Numbered from the stretch's first letter, positions 34,961 through 60,094 are shown. The stretch is 64,000 bases of DNA from Candidatus Atabeyarchaeum deiterrae (GCA_037310415.1 CP147780.1:2048001-2112000); one strand, 5' to 3'. Numbers and translations: made by a program. The notes: a model not told the origin generated them from the sequence alone.

Positions 34961-35707
34961 TTGTCAGATATATCGAACTTGACATCGTCTCTGAACAAAA
35001 TGAAACTCGTGATGAAGGATCTGCTCGCAATAGTCGACAAGGAATCAAATGGCGTATCACTTGGCGTTGACGCGATCTCAAACCTTGCCAAGCACTTTGA
35101 AGGAAGTGTCAAGGACAAGAGCAGAGCCGAGGAAGAGAAGCAGAAGAAGATAGCTCAAGTGGAAGGTGAAGTGGGAGAACTAGACAGGAAGAGAAACCAG
35201 CTGGAAGCCAACCTCGCACAATCTAACTCCAGCATCGACCAACAGAACTCAAAACTCTCAGACGTCAAACGAACACAAAACTCAACCAAGGAGGAACTTG
35301 CAGATGCCTCTGAAGAGCTGAGCAACCTTGAGAAGTCGACAACCGAGAAGAAACGCACAGCGGACAAGTTGACAAGTGATCTCCAGTCAATGAAGAAGAG
35401 ACATGAATCTGACATCCAGTCACTAAGGAAATCCTCTGAAGATGCTTCATCCAAATTGGCGCAAAAAGAAGCCCATCACAAAGCCCTACGCCTGCTAATT
35501 GGCGAGAAGGCAGTGTCCTTCCCCGAACTAAAAACCATACGAGCACTTCATGATCAACCCAACACAAACCTTGACCACCTCCAAAGAATAACTGAGTCAA
35601 GACGAAACGAAGTCGAGGACACTATCAGAGCATTAGCAAAAAGAGGAGTCGTGCAGTACGATTCGAAGTCAGGAGACGTAAGAGTTCTCAGAGATATGGA
35701 AGTATGA
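34961..35707 (+). CDS. Coiled-coil protein with C-terminal winged helix (A)
   Basis: Long heptad region; PELKTIRAL...LDHLQRIT...TIRALAKRGVVQYD. Confidence 0.7.
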   Translation: MSDISNLTSSLNKMKLVMKDLLAIVDKESNGVSLGVDAISNLAKHFEGSVKDKSRAEEEKQKKIAQVEGEVGELDRKRNQLEANLAQSNSSIDQQNSKLSDVKRTQNSTKEELADASEELSNLEKSTTEKKRTADKLTSDLQSMKKRHESDIQSLRKSSEDASSKLAQKEAHHKALRLLIGEKAVSFPELKTIRALHDQPNTNLDHLQRITESRRNEVEDTIRALAKRGVVQYDSKSGDVRVLRDMEV

Positions 35708-35736
35708 TCAAAACTTGATTCGGAGGCCACACTCAA

Positions 35737-36486
35737 ATGTCTGAAGTTGATAGATTGAAGGACTTAATCAATAAGAATGAAACCAGAATAATGGACTTGG
35801 GCAAATCAATTGAAGAGACTCTCAACTCATATTCAGAGGAATCCAAGAAAACATTAATCGTCGCCGAAAGAGTCAACGAGAAGCTGGAGGAAGCTGACAA
35901 AAGAATAAGCGGGTATGACGCTCAGATAACAAGCCTCGAAGGGAAGAGACAGGGACTAAAATCAGAGACAGGCTTCTTGGAACAGAAGATCAAGGAAGCC
36001 GAGAAGAGAATCTCATCAATAAACTCTGATATAAACTCCACGAACAAAGACATACTTAGGATACAAGACAGCATTAAGCAGTACCAAATCAAGATTGACG
36101 CTGCCAGAACCGAACTTGAGAAATACGAAAAAGAAATAGATGAGCTTGAAAAAGGCATTGAGGATACCAGACAATCAAACGAGAAGGAATTCAATGAGAG
36201 GAACGCAGCGTACACAAATGCTCTGAAGAAAACCAAGGAACTCTCGGAGAAGGAGCCTATTATGGATTTCCTATTAACAGAAGCGTCCTCAGAGCCGCCA
36301 GAGATCCCAATAGTTGCAAAGTTGATCACAGAAGCAGGATCCGCAAACATCGACGATCTCAAGAAAACTACGAAAGTTCCTCCGGCAATAGCGCTGAGAA
36401 CAATAAGCGCTCTTGAACAGAAGGGAATTGTTGAGAAGCCCGACGAAAAGCAAGTTAAACTGAAGAAGGCGTTGCCCGACCAGTGA
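35737..36486 (+). CDS. Coiled-coil protein with C-terminal winged helix (B)
   Basis: Long heptad region; PEIPIVAKL...IDDLKKTT...TISALEQKGIVE. Confidence 0.7.
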   Translation: MSEVDRLKDLINKNETRIMDLGKSIEETLNSYSEESKKTLIVAERVNEKLEEADKRISGYDAQITSLEGKRQGLKSETGFLEQKIKEAEKRISSINSDINSTNKDILRIQDSIKQYQIKIDAARTELEKYEKEIDELEKGIEDTRQSNEKEFNERNAAYTNALKKTKELSEKEPIMDFLLTEASSEPPEIPIVAKLITEAGSANIDDLKKTTKVPPAIALRTISALEQKGIVEKPDEKQVKLKKALPDQ

Positions 36487-41859: not shown

Positions 41860-42324
41860 TTGAGAGCAATGGCAAACATACGAAAGTTAGCAAAAAGTGT
41901 AGAAACTGAGGAAGGCGTGGTTAGAGTGAGCATGAGCTTACCTAACGATTTGCTGGAAGATTTTGATGAAACTGCAAAGAAGAAAGGGTACTTCAAAAGG
42001 TCTGAGGCCATCAGAGATGCTTTGAGAAACTTCATCTTGGAGAGCAAATGGGCCACAGATGAGAACTCTATCTTAGCTGGAACTATATCAATGGTCTACG
42101 ACCATGAAGTAAGATCTCTAGTAGACAAATTGATTGACCTTCAGCATGACTCCGGAGTACTCATTAAGGCCTCGTTACACCTTCACCTTGACGAGCACAA
42201 CTGCATGGAAATACTTGCTTTGGAAGGTAAGGCAAAGGAATTGAAGAGGCTATCAGAAAGTATGATAAGTAAGAAAGGAGTCAAGACATTGAAACTCACG
42301 ATACTTCACGCGAGAACCACTTAG
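41860..42324 (+). CDS. nikR: Nickel-responsive regulator NikR
   Basis: RHH domain (RVSMSLP...RSEAIRDA) and YDHE...QH...HLHLDEHNCME. Confidence 0.95.
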   Translation: MRAMANIRKLAKSVETEEGVVRVSMSLPNDLLEDFDETAKKKGYFKRSEAIRDALRNFILESKWATDENSILAGTISMVYDHEVRSLVDKLIDLQHDSGVLIKASLHLHLDEHNCMEILALEGKAKELKRLSESMISKKGVKTLKLTILHARTT

Positions 42325-42503
42325 CACGTGATCTCTTGGGCGTACTGCCTTACGTAGCGTTTATCTACTTATTCGCAGCTATTTTCCTAGAAACGTGAAT
42401 GGGGAATGGTTCTTCCTTACGGTGACCAGTCGCGGCTGGCAATACGTATAGTCCTAGAAGGCATCCAGTCTGCCAATAGTCGTACTCAGGGTGTGTAATT
42501 GCT

Positions 42504-45500
42504 GTGAAAGCTACAAATAACGAGGGCTCAGCGAAGAAAGTGATCAGATCCGGACATTACTTTTTGTTCGACTTGGATGACCGAGTCATCCACTCTAGAT
42601 TAAGTGAAGCAAATGGAGTGAAGATAAAGAGTCAGAGTTTTCCAGCAGCTAGGCTTAGTTCACTCGTTTTTGGCGCTATGATCTCCGACAGGCGGGTGTA
42701 CAATCCGAACGACACGATTAGAATTCTCGTGGCGTCTCCTGGCGGTGCAGGGAGAGGCGCTCACTTGGATATTCTTTATGGCGGAAAGCGCGAGGTGCTG
42801 AGCGACAACTTTGTGCTTGACGATTACGGTGTCCACCTGTGCGAGTTGAAGGGAATAGAAGAAACAGGTGAATACACAGCGACTGTTACCACCTCTGCCA
42901 CTGTCGGGAGTGGCAAGAACACGCAGGTGGAGACGAAATCATTCAACTGTGACTTCACTATTGCCCAGCATACCCTTAGTCCCCTACTAGTTCAGATCAA
43001 GAAGCAGGTTATCAGCGGAGATACGTTGGACGCTGAGCTTCTTGCTACCGTGCTGAACCAACCGTACACCGGCTCTATGAGAGTTGGATTGTATTGTGAT
43101 TACTGTAAGCAAGTCGTAAACGAGATGTCCGCCGAGACCAAAAAAGGCTCCTTCAGTCTCAAAATAGGTTTGAGTGGGCATACGGGTCCATTCAGACTCG
43201 AATTCTCCACTCCAGACGGAAACACAGCTTCCGTGTCACTTCAATCTACAAGGGTTGAGGAGCGCCAAGAGATCCAAGTTGGCAACCTCGGAGAAATCGT
43301 GAATGTCGCTCTTATCCCAATACCTGACGGAACGAATGTTCGGGGAATCAACTGGGCGCCTCGAGGTACGTCAACAGCTCCCGTGATCGTCAAGAGCGCA
43401 GAGTCCGACAGAATTGATGTGCATGTTGCAAGGAATCTCGACTACGTCTATGTTCACTCAGTTAACCCGTTCACGAAGGAGGCGAAGCAGTGGTTCAAAG
43501 GTCCCGTCAAAGAAGGTGAAGAGTATTCTTTCAAGAATAGCGCGCCATACCAGATCGTCTTGGTTGGATGCATAATCAATGCTAAGGAGCAAGCCTTGTT
43601 CGAAGGCAGAACCATAGTCTTCTGCCCGGAGGAGCTTGAAGTCAAAGTCAGTGCTCCCTCGAAAGTTGAGCCAAGCGAAGAAGTAACGATCACCCTAGAG
43701 ACAAACAAGAAGGCACAGTGCCTCCTCATGGTGTTCGATGAGAGACTCGATACCGAGAACATCACTGGCAAACTTGGAAAAGACATCTACAATCAAATCA
43801 AAACGCTTGGAAGCATCGAGGAACTGATGATGCAATTTGAGCCAAAAAGAGAGGAAGTATTAGAGGCGAGGGAGATGACCCGTCCTTCTGGAACGGGCAG
43901 TCGTCCCTACTCCGCTCAGCCATCAGCGGTCCCGCCCATGGTCAAGATGGCTGCAAGAGCCATGGCTGCTCCACTGCCTTCGGCGCTTATGAAGTCAGGA
44001 ACAGCCCGCTCCTACGCCGCTGCAGACATTGGAACCGTTGCCGCAATGATAACTGCTGAAATGCCAGCATATATGGCTGCTGCGCCCAGGAGGGCATGGT
44101 TCCCCAAGATACTTGCTTGCAAGCTGATAGAAGTTGAGGGAGTTCACGAAGAACGCGTTAGACTCGGTGATACCATAACGAAGTGGAAGGTTCAAGTGTA
44201 CGCCTTTGCTGACCTCGACTACATATCGAACTCAATTGACATCGAAGCTGATAGGAGTGTAGTGGTTGATGTCGACGTCCCTTCGATGATAGATGAAGGG
44301 GATGAGTACTATGGTAAAGCAGTTTACCATGTTGCTGAGGGGAAAGCAAAATTGCGGGTAAAGCTTCCTGACGGGAGCTTCTATGAAGGAGAAGTCGAGG
44401 GAGATGGATTTCGGGAATTCAAGCTCCCAGGACCAGGCACTGTTGAAGCCGAGTTGACTTCTCCCAAGGGAAGCGACTCGATAGTGAAGAGCGTAGACCC
44501 ACAAGTAAGTGAGAAGGTAACGGTTTCAGCTCTAAGCCTCTTGGAGAAAGGTGAGGAGCTACCAATCGATGTCGATAGAAAAGTCTTCATTTACACAAAT
44601 GTGAAATCACTACTCTCCTATTCAGTGAGGTCACTTATCCAATACCCATTTGGGTGCGCTGAGCAGACGAGCGCAAAGCTCTGTGGACTTGCAGTGGCAT
44701 GGGAATTCGGAGAAAACACAAATGAAATAGCACAGATGATCGACGCTGGACTCTCAAGGATGACCAAGTTCATACAACAGGATGGACTCTACTCACTTTG
44801 GGAGGGCGCCAAAGAAGGAACCCCTGAAGTCACAAAGAAAGTCCTGAAGAACCTGTCACCCCTAATAAGACTCGGGCGATTCAAAGAAAAGACAACACCT
44901 CTCATAGAGAAACCCGTGCAGGAACTTGAAAAGAGGAAAGTCGCAGACAACACGCTACTCTCTCTCAGCGAGAAGTTCATGGCACCCATGACGACCGTTG
45001 AGGACGCAGCCAACATAGCCATCTACAGCGGAGGAAAACGCAAGGAAGCGTTGAAGTTCATAGAATCGAAGGCGGTCGAAGGGTCAGGGGGCACAGAGGT
45101 CCACTGGGAACCCGCTCAGGCAACATGGGGTGGAGTTCTCGAATCAACAGCTACATGCCTTCGCGCTCTTCACGCATCGGCTGACGACAAACATCAAACC
45201 CTCTTCAGGAAGGGCTTCAAGTTTGTGGGAAAGAGGATTGTTGGGGGAAGACTGCACTCGACAGCGGATACAAGAGCATTGATCGAACTCTTCGGTGCAA
45301 TGAAAGATATGGATACCAAACCGAAGTTCTATTATCAAACATACATGAAGAGCGATCCAAGCACGCCAGTGACCAAGACGGAGAAGGACTTCGAATCAGG
45401 TGACTCCAATGGGATCATTGCTGTCGACGACGAAGCCGAAAGCGACATGTCAGCAAAGGGAAGAAGGCTCATAGCACACAGCATGCTTTTCGCTAGAGTC

Positions 45501-45851
45501 GACGGCATTGAAGTCATAGATTACAAGAAGACCAAGTCCAACTTCAACTTCGACATGAAACTTGAGAAAATGTCGCTGAAGCTTGGCGAACGCATAAAAC
45601 TCACATTGACCCCAAAGGACCAGTCAATATGCCCAGTATCCAAGGTATTTCTGCCGGCTAACGTGGCCTTCTTGGAAGGAGGAGTAAACGTCCAGACGAT
45701 ATCGAAACCTATAACTGAAGGAAGCATCGTCCTAGACCTCATAGGAACGGCACGCGGAAAATGCAGACTTTACGCCGTGCTTTACGACATGTACGACTCA
45801 AACATGGTCGGGGTCGCAATCCCGGCACGAGTGGACGTCACGTCCCCTTAA
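42504..45851 (+). CDS. Alpha-2-macroglobulin-like thioester protein 1
   Basis: SDRRVYNPNDT (MG2-like), bait-like low-complexity region, RRAWFP...LGDTITKW, YPFGCAEQTS thioester (44652-44666), STADT. Confidence 0.88.
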   Translation: MKATNNEGSAKKVIRSGHYFLFDLDDRVIHSRLSEANGVKIKSQSFPAARLSSLVFGAMISDRRVYNPNDTIRILVASPGGAGRGAHLDILYGGKREVLSDNFVLDDYGVHLCELKGIEETGEYTATVTTSATVGSGKNTQVETKSFNCDFTIAQHTLSPLLVQIKKQVISGDTLDAELLATVLNQPYTGSMRVGLYCDYCKQVVNEMSAETKKGSFSLKIGLSGHTGPFRLEFSTPDGNTASVSLQSTRVEERQEIQVGNLGEIVNVALIPIPDGTNVRGINWAPRGTSTAPVIVKSAESDRIDVHVARNLDYVYVHSVNPFTKEAKQWFKGPVKEGEEYSFKNSAPYQIVLVGCIINAKEQALFEGRTIVFCPEELEVKVSAPSKVEPSEEVTITLETNKKAQCLLMVFDERLDTENITGKLGKDIYNQIKTLGSIEELMMQFEPKREEVLEAREMTRPSGTGSRPYSAQPSAVPPMVKMAARAMAAPLPSALMKSGTARSYAAADIGTVAAMITAEMPAYMAAAPRRAWFPKILACKLIEVEGVHEERVRLGDTITKWKVQVYAFADLDYISNSIDIEADRSVVVDVDVPSMIDEGDEYYGKAVYHVAEGKAKLRVKLPDGSFYEGEVEGDGFREFKLPGPGTVEAELTSPKGSDSIVKSVDPQVSEKVTVSALSLLEKGEELPIDVDRKVFIYTNVKSLLSYSVRSLIQYPFGCAEQTSAKLCGLAVAWEFGENTNEIAQMIDAGLSRMTKFIQQDGLYSLWEGAKEGTPEVTKKVLKNLSPLIRLGRFKEKTTPLIEKPVQELEKRKVADNTLLSLSEKFMAPMTTVEDAANIAIYSGGKRKEALKFIESKAVEGSGGTEVHWEPAQATWGGVLESTATCLRALHASADDKHQTLFRKGFKFVGKRIVGGRLHSTADTRALIELFGAMKDMDTKPKFYYQTYMKSDPSTPVTKTEKDFESGDSNGIIAVDDEAESDMSAKGRRLIAHSMLFARVDGIEVIDYKKTKSNFNFDMKLEKMSLKLGERIKLTLTPKDQSICPVSKVFLPANVAFLEGGVNVQTISKPITEGSIVLDLIGTARGKCRLYAVLYDMYDSNMVGVAIPARVDVTSP

Positions 45852-46068
45852 CCTTGCTGGGATGCACCGATTCAGCCTCTCACCGTCACCGGAGTCAGTC
45901 GTGTGGAACCTTCATACTTTCCTGCTATTCGAATCGTTCTTTCCTCTGATTAATCGCGTCTTGCGAACCAAACGCAATTAGTGTTATGGCAACGAAACAG
46001 AGACACACTTTGTCAGTGATACTCTACTTAAGTATGCTCGCGCGTGGTATTAAACAAGGTCACTCTGT

Positions 46069-49000
46069 TTGATTAGTAGCGTGTTAAGGACGTGGGCAGT
46101 TTTGGAAGATCGGAGTGGGGGAGACAAACCAGTAAAGGGTATCAGAGCTGCACATTATTTCCTGTTTGATCTGCAAGATGTAAACATTTATCCCAGATTC
46201 AGCGAATCAAAAGAAGAAATAAAAGTCAAAGGTCAGAGTTACCCGACAGCGAAGATAGAATCGCTTCTATATGGTGCCTTGATCTCCGACAAGCGCGCCT
46301 ATGTTCCCGGAGATACCGTGAGACTTCTAGTTGCTTCTCCCGGCGGCGCCGGAGTACATGCTAGCCTAGAGGTTACCTTTGAAGGTCAACGAACAATACT
46401 AGCTGACGAATTCATACTCGACGACTATGGCGTATACCTATACGAGCTGAAAGGTCTCGAAGAGTCAGGCACGTATACTGCCACAATCGTAACTAACGTG
46501 ACCCCTCCTCACAAGGACGTCCAAGCAGATAGAAAAGTCTTCAGTTGTGACTTTGCTGTAACCCGGCGCACACTGAATCCTCTATCGGTTCAACTCAAGA
46601 GGCTGACTATCAGCGGAGACTCGCTAGATGCTGTAATTGTGGTTACGGTTCTCAACCAGCCGTATACTGGCTCCATCCGAATCAGGTTCTATTGCGATTA
46701 TTGCAGACAGATAATAAACGAAATGTCCGCGGAAGCCAGGAAGGGCTTATTCTACCTTAAGATCGGCCTGAGAACGCACACTGGACCATTCCGACTTGAA
46801 TTCACTACGGCTGATGGAAATACTGCTTCCTTGACACTGCAATCCATTGGCGCTGAGCAGCAACGAGAGATCCAAGTTGGTAATCTCGGCGAAGTCGTAA
46901 ATGTCGCCCCCACGCCGATGCCAGATGGTAGAAATTTGAGAGGTATTTACAGGGCGAGCCGTGGCGTGTCGGCTACCCCGATAATTGTCAAAGGAGGAGT
47001 CTCAGACAAAGTTCGATTGCAGGCTACTAGCGCCCTTGATTACGCCTGTATGTACGCCTTCAATCCATTAACGAAGAAAGTCAAGCAATGGTCTAAGAAG
47101 CGTGTCAAAGAGGATGATGAGTTCCTTTTCGACAACAGTGCGCCTTACGAAATCATTCTGGTCGGATGCATAATCAATGCCAAGGAAGAAACAGTGTTTG
47201 AAGGTAGAACTGTTGTCTTCTACCCAGAGGAACTTGAGGTCAAACTCAGCACACCGCCAAAAGCGCAGCCTAATGAGGAAGTGAGAGTTGCCTTAGAGAC
47301 GAGTAAGACAGCTCAGTGTCTCCTCATGGTTTATGACGTAAGGCTTGATACTGAAAATCTGACCAGCAAACTTGGAAATGATCTCTACACTCAAATAGCC
47401 ACGCTTGAAGCCATCGAGGAACCCGGAACTCGATACCAGCAAAGAAGAGAAGAAGCCCAATTCGGTAAGGATGCAACAGACTTACCCTCAGGCGTTCATG
47501 TCGCCCACCCAGTTGGCTCGCTTGGGGTCCAACCCGAGCCGAAGACTGCTGGGAGAGTGATGTCTGCTCTGCCACCCACGCCTGTTATGAGACTTCGAGC
47601 TGACATGTCTGAAGCGTCGGCTGCAAGAGCGCTTGCATCTATTGTCGCTTCTGAAATACCAGTTCAACTGGTTACTGCACCGAGACGAGCATTGTTTCCA
47701 GAAATCCTCGCATGCAAGCTAATTGAGGTCGATCGAGTTCACGAAGAACTCGTCAAGCTCGGCGATACCATAGGGAAGTGGAAAGTACAGGTGTACGCTT
47801 TTGCTGACCTCGACTACATTTCAAAGTCTTCTGAAATTACCGCTGACAAAACGGTGGCAATTGACATTGACATCCCCACCATGATAGAAGAAGGCGATGA
47901 GTACTATGGAAAAGCAATCTACCACGCAGCGGAAGGAAAAGCGAGACTACTTGTCAAGTTGCCTGATGGAACTACCTATGAGGATGAGGTTGAGGGTGAC
48001 GGTATCAGGGAATTCAGGTTATCCAGACCAGGCAAAGTTGAGGCTCAGCTGACTTCACCTAGTGGCGTCGACTCAATAATGAAGAGCATGGACTCCCAGT
48101 TGAGTGAAAAAGTGACAGTCTCAACGCTGACCTCGCTCGAGAAGGGCGACGAGCTATGCATTGAAGCTGGCAAGAAGTTATCTATCTACAATTCCATGAG
48201 ACCGTTGATCTCGGAATTGGCTAAGGCATTATGCCAGTATCCGTTCGAGTGTTCAGAGCAGACCAGCGCAAAGCTCTGTGGACTTGCAGTAGCATGGGAA
48301 TCCGGCGAAAGGACCAAAGAAGCAGCACAGATGATCGACGCTGGACTCGCAAGAATGGCGAAGTTTCTGCATCCAGATGCGCTCTACTCTCTTTGGGAGA
48401 ACGCTAAACTAGGAACCGCTGAAGTCACAGCAAAAGTGCTGAGGAATCTAGCACCGATTAGGAGAATAGACAGATTCGAGGAAAAGGTGAACCCGCTCAT
48501 AGTGAAATCTTTACAAGAGTTGCTTAGGAGAGACGTCCTGGATAACTCGCTACTCTCACTCAGCGAGAGATTCATGGCTCCGATATCAACCGTTGAGGAC
48601 GCGGCGAATATCGCTACATACAGAGAAATAAGGGGTGGAATGCGAAGAGGGGCCCTCGAATTCATCGAGTCCAAGGCAATCGGGGAACTTAGTGGAGACG
48701 AAGTCTACTGGGAGCCCTCAAGAGCATCTTGGGGTGGAGTTCTTGAAGCGACGGCTACTTGCTTGCGCGCACTTTATGAATCAAGCGATGAAAATCGTCG
48801 CTTTCTTTTCAAGAAAGGCTTCAAATTCGTGACAAAGAGACTTGCAAACAGTAGACTTCATTCGACAGCGGACACTAGAGCACTAATCGAGCTTTTCGCT
48901 GCAATGAAAGACGTCGGTGCGCGACCAAGGTTTTCCTATCAGACCTACGTCAAGGCCAATCCAGCTTCTCCAGTCATAAAGACAGAGAGAGATCTCACAA

Positions 49001-49455
49001 TAGGCAAGTCGGATGTTTTCATTCCAATCGATGACGAAGTCCACACTGACATATCCTCGCCGGGCAGAAAACTCACCGCACGTAGCCAACTTTTTGTGAG
49101 AATCGATGGCACCGAAACGGTAGACTATAAGAAGGTCAGGTCAACTTTTGACTTCGATGCCAAGCTCGACAGGATGATTCTGAAACTCGGACAGCGAGTA
49201 AAACTGACAGTGACACCGAGACACGAGTCAAGATGCCCAGTTGTTAGAGTCTTCCTCGCGCCTAACCTAATCTCTCTAGAGGGCGAAGTGAACATGCAAA
49301 CAATATCAAAACCCATGGTAGAAGGAAGCATCGAGCTTGATTTGCTGGCGGCAAGTCGTGGAAGATCTAGACTCTATGTAATGCTATATGACATGTACGA
49401 GCCGAACATGATTGGTATCACTATTCCGATCGGGATAACGGTGACGCTGCCATGA
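46069..49455 (+). CDS. Alpha-2-macroglobulin-like thioester protein 2 (tandem paralog)
   Basis: Colinear with copy 1; SDKRAYVPGDT, RRALFPE...LGDTIGKW, YPFECSEQTS (48247-48261), STADT. Confidence 0.88.
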   Translation: MISSVLRTWAVLEDRSGGDKPVKGIRAAHYFLFDLQDVNIYPRFSESKEEIKVKGQSYPTAKIESLLYGALISDKRAYVPGDTVRLLVASPGGAGVHASLEVTFEGQRTILADEFILDDYGVYLYELKGLEESGTYTATIVTNVTPPHKDVQADRKVFSCDFAVTRRTLNPLSVQLKRLTISGDSLDAVIVVTVLNQPYTGSIRIRFYCDYCRQIINEMSAEARKGLFYLKIGLRTHTGPFRLEFTTADGNTASLTLQSIGAEQQREIQVGNLGEVVNVAPTPMPDGRNLRGIYRASRGVSATPIIVKGGVSDKVRLQATSALDYACMYAFNPLTKKVKQWSKKRVKEDDEFLFDNSAPYEIILVGCIINAKEETVFEGRTVVFYPEELEVKLSTPPKAQPNEEVRVALETSKTAQCLLMVYDVRLDTENLTSKLGNDLYTQIATLEAIEEPGTRYQQRREEAQFGKDATDLPSGVHVAHPVGSLGVQPEPKTAGRVMSALPPTPVMRLRADMSEASAARALASIVASEIPVQLVTAPRRALFPEILACKLIEVDRVHEELVKLGDTIGKWKVQVYAFADLDYISKSSEITADKTVAIDIDIPTMIEEGDEYYGKAIYHAAEGKARLLVKLPDGTTYEDEVEGDGIREFRLSRPGKVEAQLTSPSGVDSIMKSMDSQLSEKVTVSTLTSLEKGDELCIEAGKKLSIYNSMRPLISELAKALCQYPFECSEQTSAKLCGLAVAWESGERTKEAAQMIDAGLARMAKFLHPDALYSLWENAKLGTAEVTAKVLRNLAPIRRIDRFEEKVNPLIVKSLQELLRRDVLDNSLLSLSERFMAPISTVEDAANIATYREIRGGMRRGALEFIESKAIGELSGDEVYWEPSRASWGGVLEATATCLRALYESSDENRRFLFKKGFKFVTKRLANSRLHSTADTRALIELFAAMKDVGARPRFSYQTYVKANPASPVIKTERDLTIGKSDVFIPIDDEVHTDISSPGRKLTARSQLFVRIDGTETVDYKKVRSTFDFDAKLDRMILKLGQRVKLTVTPRHESRCPVVRVFLAPNLISLEGEVNMQTISKPMVEGSIELDLLAASRGRSRLYVMLYDMYEPNMIGITIPIGITVTLP

Positions 49456-49892: not shown

Positions 49893-52763
49893 CTAGAACT
49901 CTGTTCTCGCTATTATTTCGTCTTGGACAAGCCTGTCGAGATCCGTAAACAACGCACTGTAACCTGCAACTCGGACCACTAGGTCGCGGTGTTCTTCTGG
50001 GTGTTTCTGTGCTTCGAGTAGGTCTTCGCGGCTTACAAAGTTGCTTTGCATGTGCATGCCGCCCAGCTTAAAGTATGATTTGATTAGCGACTTCAAGTTC
50101 TCTATTCCTTCATCGCCTCGAAATGTGGTTGGATTGAACTTCAGAGCTAAGACGGCGCCATTCGACACGAGTTCATAGTTTAGTTTCGCTGCTGATTTTA
50201 GGAGGGCGGTTGGTCCAAATGCTGCGGTTCCAGGCTCAGGTGTGACTCCACACGATAATGCTTTGGTAGCTTTCCTGCCGTTCGGAAGGGCTCCGACCAG
50301 TAGACCAAATGTCACATGCATTGTTACTGAGTACAGGCCGGGCTGATACCATCCGCCTCTTGGGTTCTTGAATTTCTCGACTTCTTTGCAGTAGATCTCT
50401 CCGACCCGACGAGCATAGCTATCTGCCAAGTCGTTATCTGTCCCATACTTTGGAGCTTGGTTGACTAGCATTTGCCGGAGCGGTTCGTAGCCTACAAAGT
50501 TCTTGCTGAGTGCCTTAACAAGGTCACCCATTGATACCCTTCCTTCTCTGAAGACGAGTCGGTCGATTGCAGTCAATGCATCAGCGACCGTGGCAACCCC
50601 AACTCCCTGTGGTCCGGTGAAATTGTATACAGCTCCCCCTTGTGTGAGGTCTTTGCCTCTGGTCAGACAATCATCTGTTAGTGATGAAGCGAATGGAGTG
50701 GGCTTTATTTCTTCGTGCACTCTCGCGAGAACATCCAAGCCTTCTATCATTCTACTGACAAGGTATGCGACTTGCTTCTCGTAGGCTCGTGTCACGTCTT
50801 CCATTGACGTGAATGTGTTTGGGTCTCCAGTTTGAAGCCCGATCTGCCCTACCATGACTCTCCCTTTACCATCGTTTAAGGCGAGCTCGAGGCAGAGACC
50901 CAAGTTGAGCAGCGCAGCGTCAGAGGAAGTGAAGCTCTTTCCTGGAACAGCCGGTTCAACGCATCCGATGATCCCGTAGTTGCGGGCTTCTTTCAGTGGT
51001 ATCCCTTTCCGAGTCATTGACTTGATGACCAAGTCATCGTTAAATACGTGGGGCAGCGTTCCCATTTCGAGAGCTGCACTGCAGACTTCAGTAAGGAGTT
51101 TCTCTGGGGTTGATCTGTGGATTCTTATCCCGAAGTTTGGTTGAGGAGTTTTCACGCTTCTCGCAGCGTTTAGAATCACATATGACAGGTTATTGGTAGC
51201 GTCGTTTCCGTTCTCATCTATTCCACCTATTACAGCATTTGCGAAGGCAGTCAACCCGGCGAAAGCTATGCTGGCATCGGTGTCAAATAGCGGTATTACG
51301 CTGGACAGCTTGAGAAAGAAGCATTCAAGCAGTTCTTGAGCTTTGTCACTGCTTATTCTTCCTGCGTTCAGATCTGCTTGGTAGTACGGGCTCAGATATT
51401 GATCCATTCTCCCGAGAGAGATAGCAGACTCGTAGCTCTCCATTTGGCATGCAAGATGAGTAAAGAACATGGCTTGCAGGCACTCCTGGAATGTCTCCGA
51501 GGGATTCTCAGGAACTTTGGCGCATATCCTTGCAATCTCCTTGAGTTCTGCGCGTCGTTCCGGGTTTTTCTCTGCATCGGCCATTTGCCCAGCAAGTTCG
51601 CTGTGTCTGTTTGCGAAATGTATAACACTCTGGCACGCTATCTCTGTAGCGTCACAGAATTCGATTTTGTGCTGCATCTCAACGCTTCTAGGTTTACCTT
51701 CATCAAGTGCCTCCTGTCGCAGTTTCTTGGCCTCGTTGACTATCTGCTTGAGTCCAAGTTTCAGCACACGCTCATGGTTTATCAGCATGTGCCCAATTCC
51801 CGCTATCTCTGTTAAGATGAATACTCCAAGCCTATCGAATAAGTCGGCAACTTCTTTTGGCAAGTATTTTCTTGTCAGATCGACAATTGTTTTGCCCCGC
51901 CAGTAAGGAAATACCTTCTCTTGCAGTTCCCGCTTCTCATCTTCGGTTATGGTGAACGGATTCGTGCTTCTTTGTCCTATTCTGTTGAGTTCTCCTTCTA
52001 TCCGTGGTCCGAGTGCTGTCTCTGGGTAGACCCCTGCCGCAAGAGGCTTACTTGTGATATTGCCAACTATGAACTCGTCAGGATAGATGTTGACGGTGAG
52101 ATTGTCCAGAGTAAGCTTCAACGCTTTTGCCTGCCGGATGACGGCTGGCTCTCCCTCAGTTGATTTGTGAGATTCAGTGTAATATCTTGCTCTCTCGACA
52201 CATATCTCCCTCCGCTGTGTCAGGAAACGTTTCTTGAGGCGATTCACTCGCGACTCTGCGGAATCGGGCTCAGGGGACGGCTTAGGCGCACCTTCGTGAA
52301 CGCCTCCTTTTGTGGGCGTCTCACTAACGATGCCCAACTCTTTGCAGTACTCGATATACGTTCTTATGGTTTGGGGAAGTGTTCGTGTCATCTTTGTAAC
52401 GACGCTTCTGTCGCCATCAGTTCTCACGGAATCGGATCCGAATGCCTGAAAAGTGCTTAGTCTGCCTGAATACAGTTCATGAAACGTATTGGCACTTAGG
52501 GTCAAAGTCACGTCGGGTGTTTCCTTGGCTTTGCCTTGAAACACTCTCACGCGCTTTCCAGTTTTGGTATCGATAATGATGAAGACCTCTGGATATTCGA
52601 GATGAATTTGAATAATGGCATTTAAGTCCAACAATGCGTTGGCGACTTCTGGATTTCTATTGGCTCTTCTGTAGAATTCCACCAAGAACTCTTCAGCTTG
52701 TCTTGGATTCTTTAAGTAAGGGAATTCATCCTTTTCGATTGCTGTTCTTGCAGTTGAAGACAT
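49893..52763 (-). CDS. Glycyl radical enzyme (PFL2/dehydratase-like) with N-terminal SCP2-like domain
   Basis: ERARYYT, SLGRMDQY, IIGCVEP (single Cys), VRVAGYS; N-terminal PDVTLTLSANTFHELYSGRLSTFQAF...TDGD; probable ATG at 52763. Confidence 0.9.
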   Translation of the reverse strand: MSSTARTAIEKDEFPYLKNPRQAEEFLVEFYRRANRNPEVANALLDLNAIIQIHLEYPEVFIIIDTKTGKRVRVFQGKAKETPDVTLTLSANTFHELYSGRLSTFQAFGSDSVRTDGDRSVVTKMTRTLPQTIRTYIEYCKELGIVSETPTKGGVHEGAPKPSPEPDSAESRVNRLKKRFLTQRREICVERARYYTESHKSTEGEPAVIRQAKALKLTLDNLTVNIYPDEFIVGNITSKPLAAGVYPETALGPRIEGELNRIGQRSTNPFTITEDEKRELQEKVFPYWRGKTIVDLTRKYLPKEVADLFDRLGVFILTEIAGIGHMLINHERVLKLGLKQIVNEAKKLRQEALDEGKPRSVEMQHKIEFCDATEIACQSVIHFANRHSELAGQMADAEKNPERRAELKEIARICAKVPENPSETFQECLQAMFFTHLACQMESYESAISLGRMDQYLSPYYQADLNAGRISSDKAQELLECFFLKLSSVIPLFDTDASIAFAGLTAFANAVIGGIDENGNDATNNLSYVILNAARSVKTPQPNFGIRIHRSTPEKLLTEVCSAALEMGTLPHVFNDDLVIKSMTRKGIPLKEARNYGIIGCVEPAVPGKSFTSSDAALLNLGLCLELALNDGKGRVMVGQIGLQTGDPNTFTSMEDVTRAYEKQVAYLVSRMIEGLDVLARVHEEIKPTPFASSLTDDCLTRGKDLTQGGAVYNFTGPQGVGVATVADALTAIDRLVFREGRVSMGDLVKALSKNFVGYEPLRQMLVNQAPKYGTDNDLADSYARRVGEIYCKEVEKFKNPRGGWYQPGLYSVTMHVTFGLLVGALPNGRKATKALSCGVTPEPGTAAFGPTALLKSAAKLNYELVSNGAVLALKFNPTTFRGDEGIENLKSLIKSYFKLGGMHMQSNFVSREDLLEAQKHPEEHRDLVVRVAGYSALFTDLDRLVQDEIIARTEF

Positions 52764-53078
52764 GTGTGGTCTCCTCTCCTGCCGCCCCGCTTCTGACGGG
52801 TGATTCACCGTGAGGGTTAATGAGATATCGGTTCTGCTTGACCGAGTTACTAATAGGTCAGTCTATCCAATATAATATAGTTATTCAATTGCATCACGGG
52901 GGACAACAACTGAACCTAGACGAGAGAAACCGAGCGTGTTCGATAGATGATGCGCACTTAACTTTGGTGTAGCGATTTCACGATGTGTGTCAAGGTTGCA
53001 AAGAAAGATTTACAATGGGGAAGATACATAGAGATCGTGTTTGAAGACAGTTGCAGTTGAGAAGGATGAAAGAGTCGA

Positions 53079-59572: not shown

Positions 59573-60094
59573 CTATTCTCTCAGAAGTCCTTCTATTACG
59601 CTTGTCGAAACTTGATAGGCTGATTCATCAAGGACAGAAATAGGATAGATCTTGATGTCCTTGAATGTCTCTTCCAGTTCTTCGACTGTCAAGACGTGTT
59701 TATCCCACTTTGTTACCAGAACATAGACCTCAGCATCAGGAGAGTTTCTTCTCAGGTTTTCATGGTACTTGCGGAAAAGCTTGGAGGCACCCTCCAGATT
59801 CTCCTTAGATGATGAATCTACCATGAAAAGGAAAACTGATACCTTTCCGAAAAGAGTCGGTATCCACTGGTCCGTCGAATAGGTGTCTACGAAGCTTGTC
59901 TGCCCGCCACAGTCAAATGCGGAGACCATCACACCCTCTGAACCCTTAAACTCATAAAGGGATATGCCAACGCCGAAAGTTGGTCTGTATTCTTCAATTT
60001 CACTGAATTCCTTTTTCTCGAAGACATGCTTGATGAAGGTCGTCTTTCCTGACGATGGTAGTCCCATTATGAGTATCTTCAGTATTTTTGGCAT
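59573..60094 (-). CDS. Small GTPase, Rag/Gtr-like G domain
   Basis: G1 GLPSSGKTT, G2 PT, G3 DCGGQ, FMVDS, G4 TKWD; no C-terminal roadblock domain. Confidence 0.85.
   Translation of the reverse strand: MPKILKILIMGLPSSGKTTFIKHVFEKKEFSEIEEYRPTFGVGISLYEFKGSEGVMVSAFDCGGQTSFVDTYSTDQWIPTLFGKVSVFLFMVDSSSKENLEGASKLFRKYHENLRRNSPDAEVYVLVTKWDKHVLTVEELEETFKDIKIYPISVLDESAYQVSTSVIEGLLRE

Follow-up and report, generated by a model that had tools for sequence, protein, structure and literature searches.

Leaderless, shortened members of the alpha-2-macroglobulin/thioester-protein superfamily encoded by a tandem gene pair in Candidatus Atabeyarchaeum deiterrae

To our knowledge, every alpha-2-macroglobulin (A2M) or thioester-containing protein (TEP) studied so far acts outside the cytoplasm; this is the case of A2M itself, complement C3 and C4, the insect TEPs, CD109 and the bacterial protein ECAM. 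The eukaryotic proteins are secreted or anchored by glycosylphosphatidylinositol and comprise eight macroglobulin (MG) domains. ECAM, of about 1650 residues, is exported as a lipoprotein, possesses additional MG domains at its N-terminus and is usually paired with pbpC. Here we describe two genes, A (P0001; 42504..45851) and B (P0002; 46069..49455), in a 64,000-nucleotide stretch of the Candidatus Atabeyarchaeum deiterrae genome (GCA_037310415.1, CP147780.1:2048001-2112000). This whole stretch is referred to as the window; positions are counted from its first letter, and both genes lie on its plus strand; features of the opposite strand are marked (−). The two products are paralogs and belong to a branch of the A2M/TEP superfamily that is shortened and has no leader.

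A sequence-only reading of the window had pointed to two colinear paralogs of about 1120 residues, and the genes were found exactly where it had placed them. Gene A encodes 1115 residues from a GTG start and gene B 1128 residues from a TTG start; they are co-directional and separated by 217 nt. Use of an alternative TTG at 46102 would give B an N-terminus as long as that of A. The proteins are 59% identical and colinear across 1112 positions, and a Pfam scan of the whole closed 2.76-Mb genome, in which both exceed the cut-off, identified them as its sole A2M-domain genes. All the motifs quoted in the earlier reading occur in both copies, namely the MG2-like D(R/K)xxYxPxD (residues 62-70 of gene A), YCDYC (197-201), R..FP...GDTI..W (530-561), the thioester motif CxEQ and STADT (919-923). 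Purifying selection acts on both copies: over their whole length, the ratio of non-synonymous to synonymous substitution rates (dN/dS) for A versus B is about 0.09, although dS has reached saturation.

The A2M/TEP-like fold proposed from the sequence was borne out by structure prediction. An AlphaFold2 model of gene A, built on a 46-sequence alignment of the family, had a mean predicted local distance difference test score (pLDDT) of 84.8 and a predicted template-modelling score (pTM) of 0.79, with pLDDT below 50 solely at residues 1-11 and 439-529. It was used in place of an earlier model from 11 sequences, which was poor (pLDDT 68, pTM 0.44) and gave a misleading domain mapping. Foldseek matched the model to A2ML1, A2M, CD109, TEP1, C5 and ECAM with E values of 1e-37 to 1e-33 and a probability of 1.00, the best match being A2ML1 (about 1e-37). 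Query template-modelling scores were 0.45-0.60 for native forms, including 0.59 for native CD109, as compared with 0.30-0.33 for activated forms; the model appears to adopt the native, pre-cleavage arrangement. VIA-align gave Z scores of 21-22 across 690-820 residues with TEP1, A2ML1, A2M and CD109, the highest being that of TEP1r (Z 22.2, root mean square deviation (rmsd) 6.8 Å over 813 residues), followed by A2ML1 (21.7) and native A2M (21.5). At the sequence level, the Pfam matches of gene A are weak but colinear (A2M_BRD, 25.4 bits with a cut-off of 22.7; A2M, 23.2 bits with a cut-off of 21; TED_complement; MG2), and a profile of the 46-sequence family gave E values of 5e-22 for human A2M, 6e-21 for E. 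coli YfhM/ECAM, 8e-18 for Salmonella A2M and 9e-16 for TEP1. Chance similarity is thus far exceeded.

According to the model, gene A consists of three N-terminal MG-type beta-sandwich domains (residues 58-153, 161-246 and 294-373; 42675..43622), of which the last two are separated by a short beta segment (247-292), then a bait-bearing MG domain (380-412 and 536-582), an MG7-like domain, a CUB-like domain (669-697 and 942-1006) into which the thioester domain (TED) is inserted, and an MG8-like beta-sandwich akin to a receptor-binding domain (1016-1113; 45549..45842). Alignments reach the C-terminal domain of TEP1, A2M, CD109 and ECAM. They start only at about residue 76-125 of TEP1, A2M, A2ML1 and CD109 and at residue 385 of ECAM, while the profile alignment places residues 62-198 of gene A on residues 98-246 of human A2M. 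The description of these proteins as compact thus proved apt, with three MG domains before the bait domain as compared with five in eukaryotic TEPs and more in ECAM.

Two groups of described proteins may be set beside this architecture. Type I bacterial A2Ms (ECAM/YfhM, PDB 5a42, 4ziq and 4rtd; Salmonella SaA2M, 4u48) have the same monomer-sized array of MG domains, bait MG, CUB-TED and C-terminal MG, and ECAM/YfhM also shares the YP(F/Y)GCxEQT thioester context and matched the gene A model with a Foldseek E value of 1e-33. Unlike ECAM, however, A and B are encoded by an archaeon, measure 1115 and 1128 residues, lack a lipobox and a signal peptide, and have no pbpC neighbour; no pbpC or other penicillin-binding protein gene was found among the neighbours in the window or in the related loci. 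The eukaryotic TEPs (A2M, A2ML1, CD109, Anopheles TEP1 and C3/C4/C5) gave the best whole-molecule superpositions and have CxEQ and STxDT in common with A and B. In contrast to them, A and B lack MG1, one further MG domain and a signal peptide, display 12-14% identity, and show no sign of an anaphylatoxin or C345C domain.

The thioester motif is intact in both proteins. In gene A it reads C718-A-E-Q721 (YPFGCAEQT; 44655..44666), aligned with GCGEQ of A2M and GCLEQ of YfhM, and in gene B C728-S-E-Q731 (YPFECSEQT; 48250..48261); every one of the 46 family members in the alignment has this Cys, Glu and Gln. The motif of gene A lies in a predicted alpha/alpha toroid (residues 700-937; 44601..45314; pLDDT about 90), as the sequence-only reading would have it: residues 699-938 superpose on the C5 TED with Z 17.9 (rmsd 3.6 Å over 230 residues) and on C4Adg with Z 17.0 (rmsd 3.5 Å). 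In the profile alignment STADT falls on STQDT of human A2M. The equivalent of C3 His1104, which sets nucleophile preference, was not located by a weak single-sequence search of the TED against PDB sequences. A and B may each form a reactive Cys-Gln thioester.

The other defining property of the pair is the lack of any recognizable export signal, a claim of the earlier reading that was upheld. The open frames extend to just 1123 (A) and 1133 (B) codons; a hidden signal peptide is ruled out because they close 8 and 5 codons 5′ of the starts, so that one could have been missed only through a frameshift. Neither protein has a hydrophobic segment or membrane helix (highest 19-residue mean Kyte-Doolittle value 1.2-1.3), nor a twin-arginine translocation (Tat; RR) or lipobox motif within its first 70 residues, and eight orthologs are likewise devoid of signal, Tat motif, lipobox and membrane helix. 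Orthologs with an ATG start begin at the same place; their N-terminus is likewise short, hydrophilic and rich in Lys, and it leads into a conserved G-x-x-F-h-F strand. A hydrophobic N-terminus was seen in just 3 of the roughly 160 family proteins listed. Distant members with an xCCEQ motif have further domains fused to their N-terminus: MerR helix-turn-helix (HTH), Ser/Thr kinase, FHA, zinc-ribbon, ankyrin and GIY-YIG-like/T5orf172 (P0082, P0101, P0041, P0110, P0151, P0105). Because such domains are found there, a cytoplasmic location is the best reading; for the family at large the support is good, and A and B themselves are, by homology, likely to be cytoplasmic.

The only long disordered stretch of the gene A model (residues 439-529; 43818-44090) is the core of a bait-like insert (413-535; 43740..44108) located between the A2M_BRD and A2M Pfam matches. 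The corresponding insert of gene B (447-536; 47407..47676) has diverged from it: identity between the two baits is 24%, as compared with 45-77% in all other blocks, and the bait dN/dS is 0.375 versus the overall value given above. Among orthologs, bait identity is 30-44%. In gene A and its orthologs the bait is rich in Ala, Met and Pro (Met 8-11% versus about 2% elsewhere), and gene A and all Atabeyarchaeia orthologs have a semi-conserved P-x-x-K-M-A-A core; copy B has lost both this core and the Met-richness. The Met-rich bait with its KMAA core may possibly represent a fixed cleavage site, a metal-binding element or an oxidation sensor.

In a quick, unrooted maximum-likelihood tree confined to 44 members of the prokaryotic family, A and B are sisters (Shimodaira-Hasegawa-like approximate likelihood ratio test (SH-aLRT) 99) within a fully supported Atabeyarchaeia clade. 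The branch of B (0.52) is four times longer than that of A (0.13). The gene is single-copy in the closed Atabeyarchaeia-1 genome and in three other Atabeyarchaeia-like contigs, and a tandem pair was seen at no other locus; a 405-residue gene by one ortholog (locus L010), considered as a possible remnant of copy B, encodes a TPR protein. The pair is therefore a recent, lineage-specific tandem duplication in which one bait has been rewritten. A separate observation concerns a tract of about 180 nt starting at the thioester codons (44655-44834 versus 48250-48429), in which the paralogs are 82-88% identical as compared with 65% overall and in which synonymous codons are mostly common to both. This could be due to a short, old gene conversion or to constraint at the nucleotide level.

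How might such proteins work? The favoured reading is that A and B are intracellular, bait-triggered covalent protease traps whose two copies are tuned to different targets, and we give it about an even chance of being correct. A and B would remain in the cytoplasm, and their Cys-Gln thioester would be buried in the folded protein, as it is in native A2M, TEP1 and ECAM. Cleavage of the bait loop by a protease would set off the usual rearrangement and expose the thioester, which would then acylate a nearby lysine of the cutting protease, leaving it tethered and blocked as in monomeric ECAM. Since copy B evolves at about four times the rate of copy A and has a rewritten bait, A and B would most likely cover two protease specificities, for example those of viral, injected-toxin or own-cell proteases. 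For A and B we thus infer thioester formation, cytoplasmic location, bait cleavage as the trigger and proteases as the targets. The trap mechanism is the best-supported of the mechanisms that we have considered and a plausible one, given the disordered, fast-evolving bait and the native-state model. The earlier proposal of a protease trap therefore stands as a plausible mechanism. The tandem pair amounts to a natural experiment, in which the same scaffold carries a rewritten bait and both copies are under purifying selection, and their specificity is directly testable.

Several observations weigh against this interpretation. The genes lie outside any defence island, with nikR, cbiMNQO, a glycyl-radical enzyme gene and alcohol dehydrogenase genes as neighbours, and no partner gene is conserved across the family loci examined. 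No candidate target protease has emerged. The fusions that argue for a cytoplasmic location belong to distant bacterial relatives (about 20-30% identical) and not to A or B, and a few family members (P0028, perhaps P0020) have an N-terminal membrane helix, so that location may vary. The bait of gene A and its orthologs, with its persistent Ala/Met/Pro-rich character and KMAA core, is not fully hypervariable, which might point to a single, fixed partner, perhaps a cellular one, instead of an arms race. On the favourable side, a wetland metatranscriptome yielded three short contigs on gene A, with 0-2 mismatches each, which is a weak sign that gene A is expressed; these RNA contigs carry no strand information and may reflect DNA carry-over. 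No contig matched gene B, and three other RNA runs contained nothing from the locus, which is not evidence of silence.

The wider family gives these proteins a context. An exhaustive HMMER search recovered 370 representative clusters at E<=1e-3, of which 67 were at E<=1e-30, from both bacteria and archaea, so that the family numbers at least 370 clusters. Orthologs in Atabeyarchaeia-like contigs are 63-68% identical to A and B. Other Asgard genomes, together with Methanosarcinales, Thermoprotei, Planctomycetota and Vulcanimicrobiota, have relatives with 29-36% identity. Orthologs and relatives alike are leaderless proteins of about 1050-1130 residues with GCAEQ. A and B share the hallmarks of the family, namely a length of about 1050-1130 residues, the leaderless G-x-x-F-h-F strand, YP(F/Y)GCAEQTS (in B, YPFECSEQT) and a C-terminal DMYD. 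The closest named relative of the proteins is that of Atabeyarchaeia-1, an Asgard archaeon from wetland soil (PMC11291895), named 'alpha-2-macroglobulin family protein' at NCBI. Our literature searches turned up neither an A2M family described as leaderless or cytoplasmic nor any A2M with selenocysteine, and the Atabeyarchaeia genome papers mention neither macroglobulin nor thioester. Scans with NCBIfam, PADLOC and PHROGs gave nothing useful, and no relative was found in a scan of viral contigs. A pattern scan of genome contigs matched two loci only and provides no taxonomic census.

The distribution of the family lends no support to another suggestion of the sequence-only reading, according to which the pair would bear, through the archaeal relatives of eukaryotes, on the origin of thioester-based innate immunity. 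Ten of 400 Asgard genomes gave any match at E<=1e-5; about 6 of the ten, from three families, have the compact GCAEQ form, and three others encode long, classical-type proteins of about 2000 residues. The Asgard sequences form three separate clades in the tree, among which sequences of Methanosarcinales, of Thermoprotei and without a name are interspersed; a Vulcanimicrobiota clade and a Planctomycetota sequence are nearby. Identity of the Atabeyarchaeia proteins to other Asgard homologs is 29-30%, as compared with 34-36% to the best relatives outside Asgard (one from Methanosarcinales). The family profile is equidistant from human A2M and ECAM, being no closer to the eukaryotic protein than to ECAM. 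Owing to this patchy distribution, the three clades and the equidistance of the profile, no special link to eukaryotic TEPs can be seen; the family is a patchy prokaryotic one, probably spread by gene transfer, and on present evidence the pair is uninformative on the origin of eukaryotic complement-like immunity.

Some bacterial relatives depart from A and B at the thioester itself. Among the 150 best representatives, 21 stop at YP(F/Y/H)G, so that the Cys position would come next. At two unrelated loci (L003:8284-8286 and L006:4329-4331) the next codon is TGA and the frame goes on as AEQTSS to a normal C-terminus, and three further loci (L004, L005 and L007) likewise have an in-frame TGA at the thioester Cys codon. 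Gene callers split such genes in two, and many of the TGA-bearing relatives have an N-terminal zinc ribbon; A and B differ from these bacterial proteins in having neither TGA at the Cys position nor an N-terminal fusion. Insertion of selenocysteine at the TGA codon is plausible on sequence grounds. In a check for a selenocysteine insertion sequence (SECIS), the 62 nt 3′ of the TGA in two relatives folded no better than shuffled sequences (z 0.0 and 0.6).

The leaderless branch thus spans many bacteria as well as archaea, Asgard and others, and some of its members are fusions with kinases, FHA or DNA-binding domains. If this large, conserved branch with its intact warhead is intracellular, covalent thioester capture would extend to the cell interior. 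It is tempting to go further and to speculate that A and B are the Asgard representatives of a widespread, hitherto undescribed intracellular prokaryotic thioester immune layer, which would capture or tag viral or injected-toxin proteases, diversify its baits by duplication and, in some bacteria, swap the cysteine for selenocysteine. We put this forward tentatively, as possible and less probable than not.

Alternatively, A and B may be intracellular sensors or taggers rather than inhibitors. The thioester would be exposed by bait cleavage or some other trigger, and the signal would be either its covalent deposition on a target of viral or other foreign origin or the change in conformation. This would resemble opsonisation by complement C3 or TEP1 moved inside the cell, and the gene A model matches TEP1, CD109 and C5 no less well than the A2Ms. 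Relatives fused to a Ser/Thr kinase, FHA, MerR HTH or GIY-YIG nuclease-like domain would fit such a role, as would the kinase-FHA gene that adjoins the TGA-type gene at two loci (L003 and L004). A and B themselves, however, lack effector and signalling domains, and none of their conserved neighbours could provide a readout, and the lack of a PADLOC or PHROG match and of relatives on viral contigs also tells against a sensor, which we consider unlikely.

The absence of a signal peptide would be less meaningful if the proteins reached the cell surface or the medium by another route (in vesicles, through lysis or along some archaeal pathway as yet unknown) and acted there as classical extracellular traps. 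Asgard archaea are known to shed vesicles. Such an export would agree with the extracellular action of every characterised A2M/TEP and with the N-terminal membrane helices of a few family members, such as P0028. It is at odds with the lack of signal, Tat motif, lipobox and membrane helix in A, B and the eight orthologs, and with the family-wide fusions to DNA-binding and phospho-signalling domains, which make sense only in the cytoplasm; we regard unconventional export as quite unlikely.

The genomic neighbourhood invites the thought that the thioester scaffold was recruited for a role unrelated to proteases, such as metal handling or redox chemistry. The upstream genes are those of a cbiMNQO nickel/cobalt transporter and nikR (ribbon-helix-helix and NikR_C by Pfam; 41860..42324), the latter ending 180 nt before gene A. 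Downstream, on the opposite strand, are genes for a small membrane protein, a glycyl-radical enzyme fused to SCP2 and iron-dependent alcohol dehydrogenases. The order nikR, A2M-like gene, opposite-strand glycyl-radical enzyme is found at four related Atabeyarchaeia-like loci, with cbiM at two related loci. In addition, a CxxC (Cys198 and Cys201; 43095-43106) at a beta-hairpin turn of the second MG domain and an HTGPF (His226; 43179-43193) are invariant in the close subfamily, and together they might possibly form a site for zinc or another metal; some TGA-codon relatives (e.g. P0035) have neither. The Met-rich loop of gene A and its orthologs, and the TGA codon that replaces the thioester Cys codon in other lineages, a pattern typical of redox-active cysteines, may be counted on the same side. 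The synteny, however, is limited to close relatives: the nikR order is lost in the next-nearest homologs, which have no neighbour in common there. Likewise, CxEQ, STxDT and the native-state architecture are kept as in true thioester proteins, and copy B has lost the Met-rich loop while retaining all else. A search for an operator-like repeat common to the nikR promoter region and the sequence 5′ of gene A yielded weak repeats only. A metal or redox function is accordingly very doubtful.

Since the duplication is lineage-specific and one bait has been rewritten, two specificities fit better than an obligate heterodimer. A heterodimer had also been suggested for A and B, and their adjacency, common direction and purifying selection might favour it; yet the duplication is private to this lineage, one copy suffices in relatives, the 217-nt spacer has a TATA-like box that suggests a promoter of its own for gene B, and the metatranscriptome contigs fall on gene A alone (a weak point), so that we hold such a partnership to be extremely improbable.

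The surroundings of the pair are those of a chromosomal core locus, not of a defence island or mobile element, and GC content is unremarkable. The spacer between nikR and gene A contains, at 42342-42475, two pairs of imperfect direct repeats of 13 nt; the spacing is 67 nt in each pair, and the arrangement looks like a degenerate 67-nt tandem duplication. The glycyl-radical enzyme downstream (49893-52808, −) combines PFL-like and Gly_radical domains with an N-terminal domain of the SCP2 sterol-carrier type, and this fusion is kept in the Atabeyarchaeia-like loci. Outside these loci, the A2M-like gene has a glutamine synthetase gene as its direct neighbour in an Asgard genome, where the two converge with 38 nt between them, and at Vulcanimicrobiota-type loci, where they diverge; this may be due to chance (L022:135-1454; L024, about 60-1400 on the minus strand; L026:6130-7467). 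Elsewhere in the window, inspection by eye revealed two tandem coiled-coil genes with C-terminal winged-helix-like tails (34961-36486) and a small Ras/Arf-like GTPase gene adjoining that of a KaiC/RecA-like ATPase (59573-60094, −, and 60291-61097, −).

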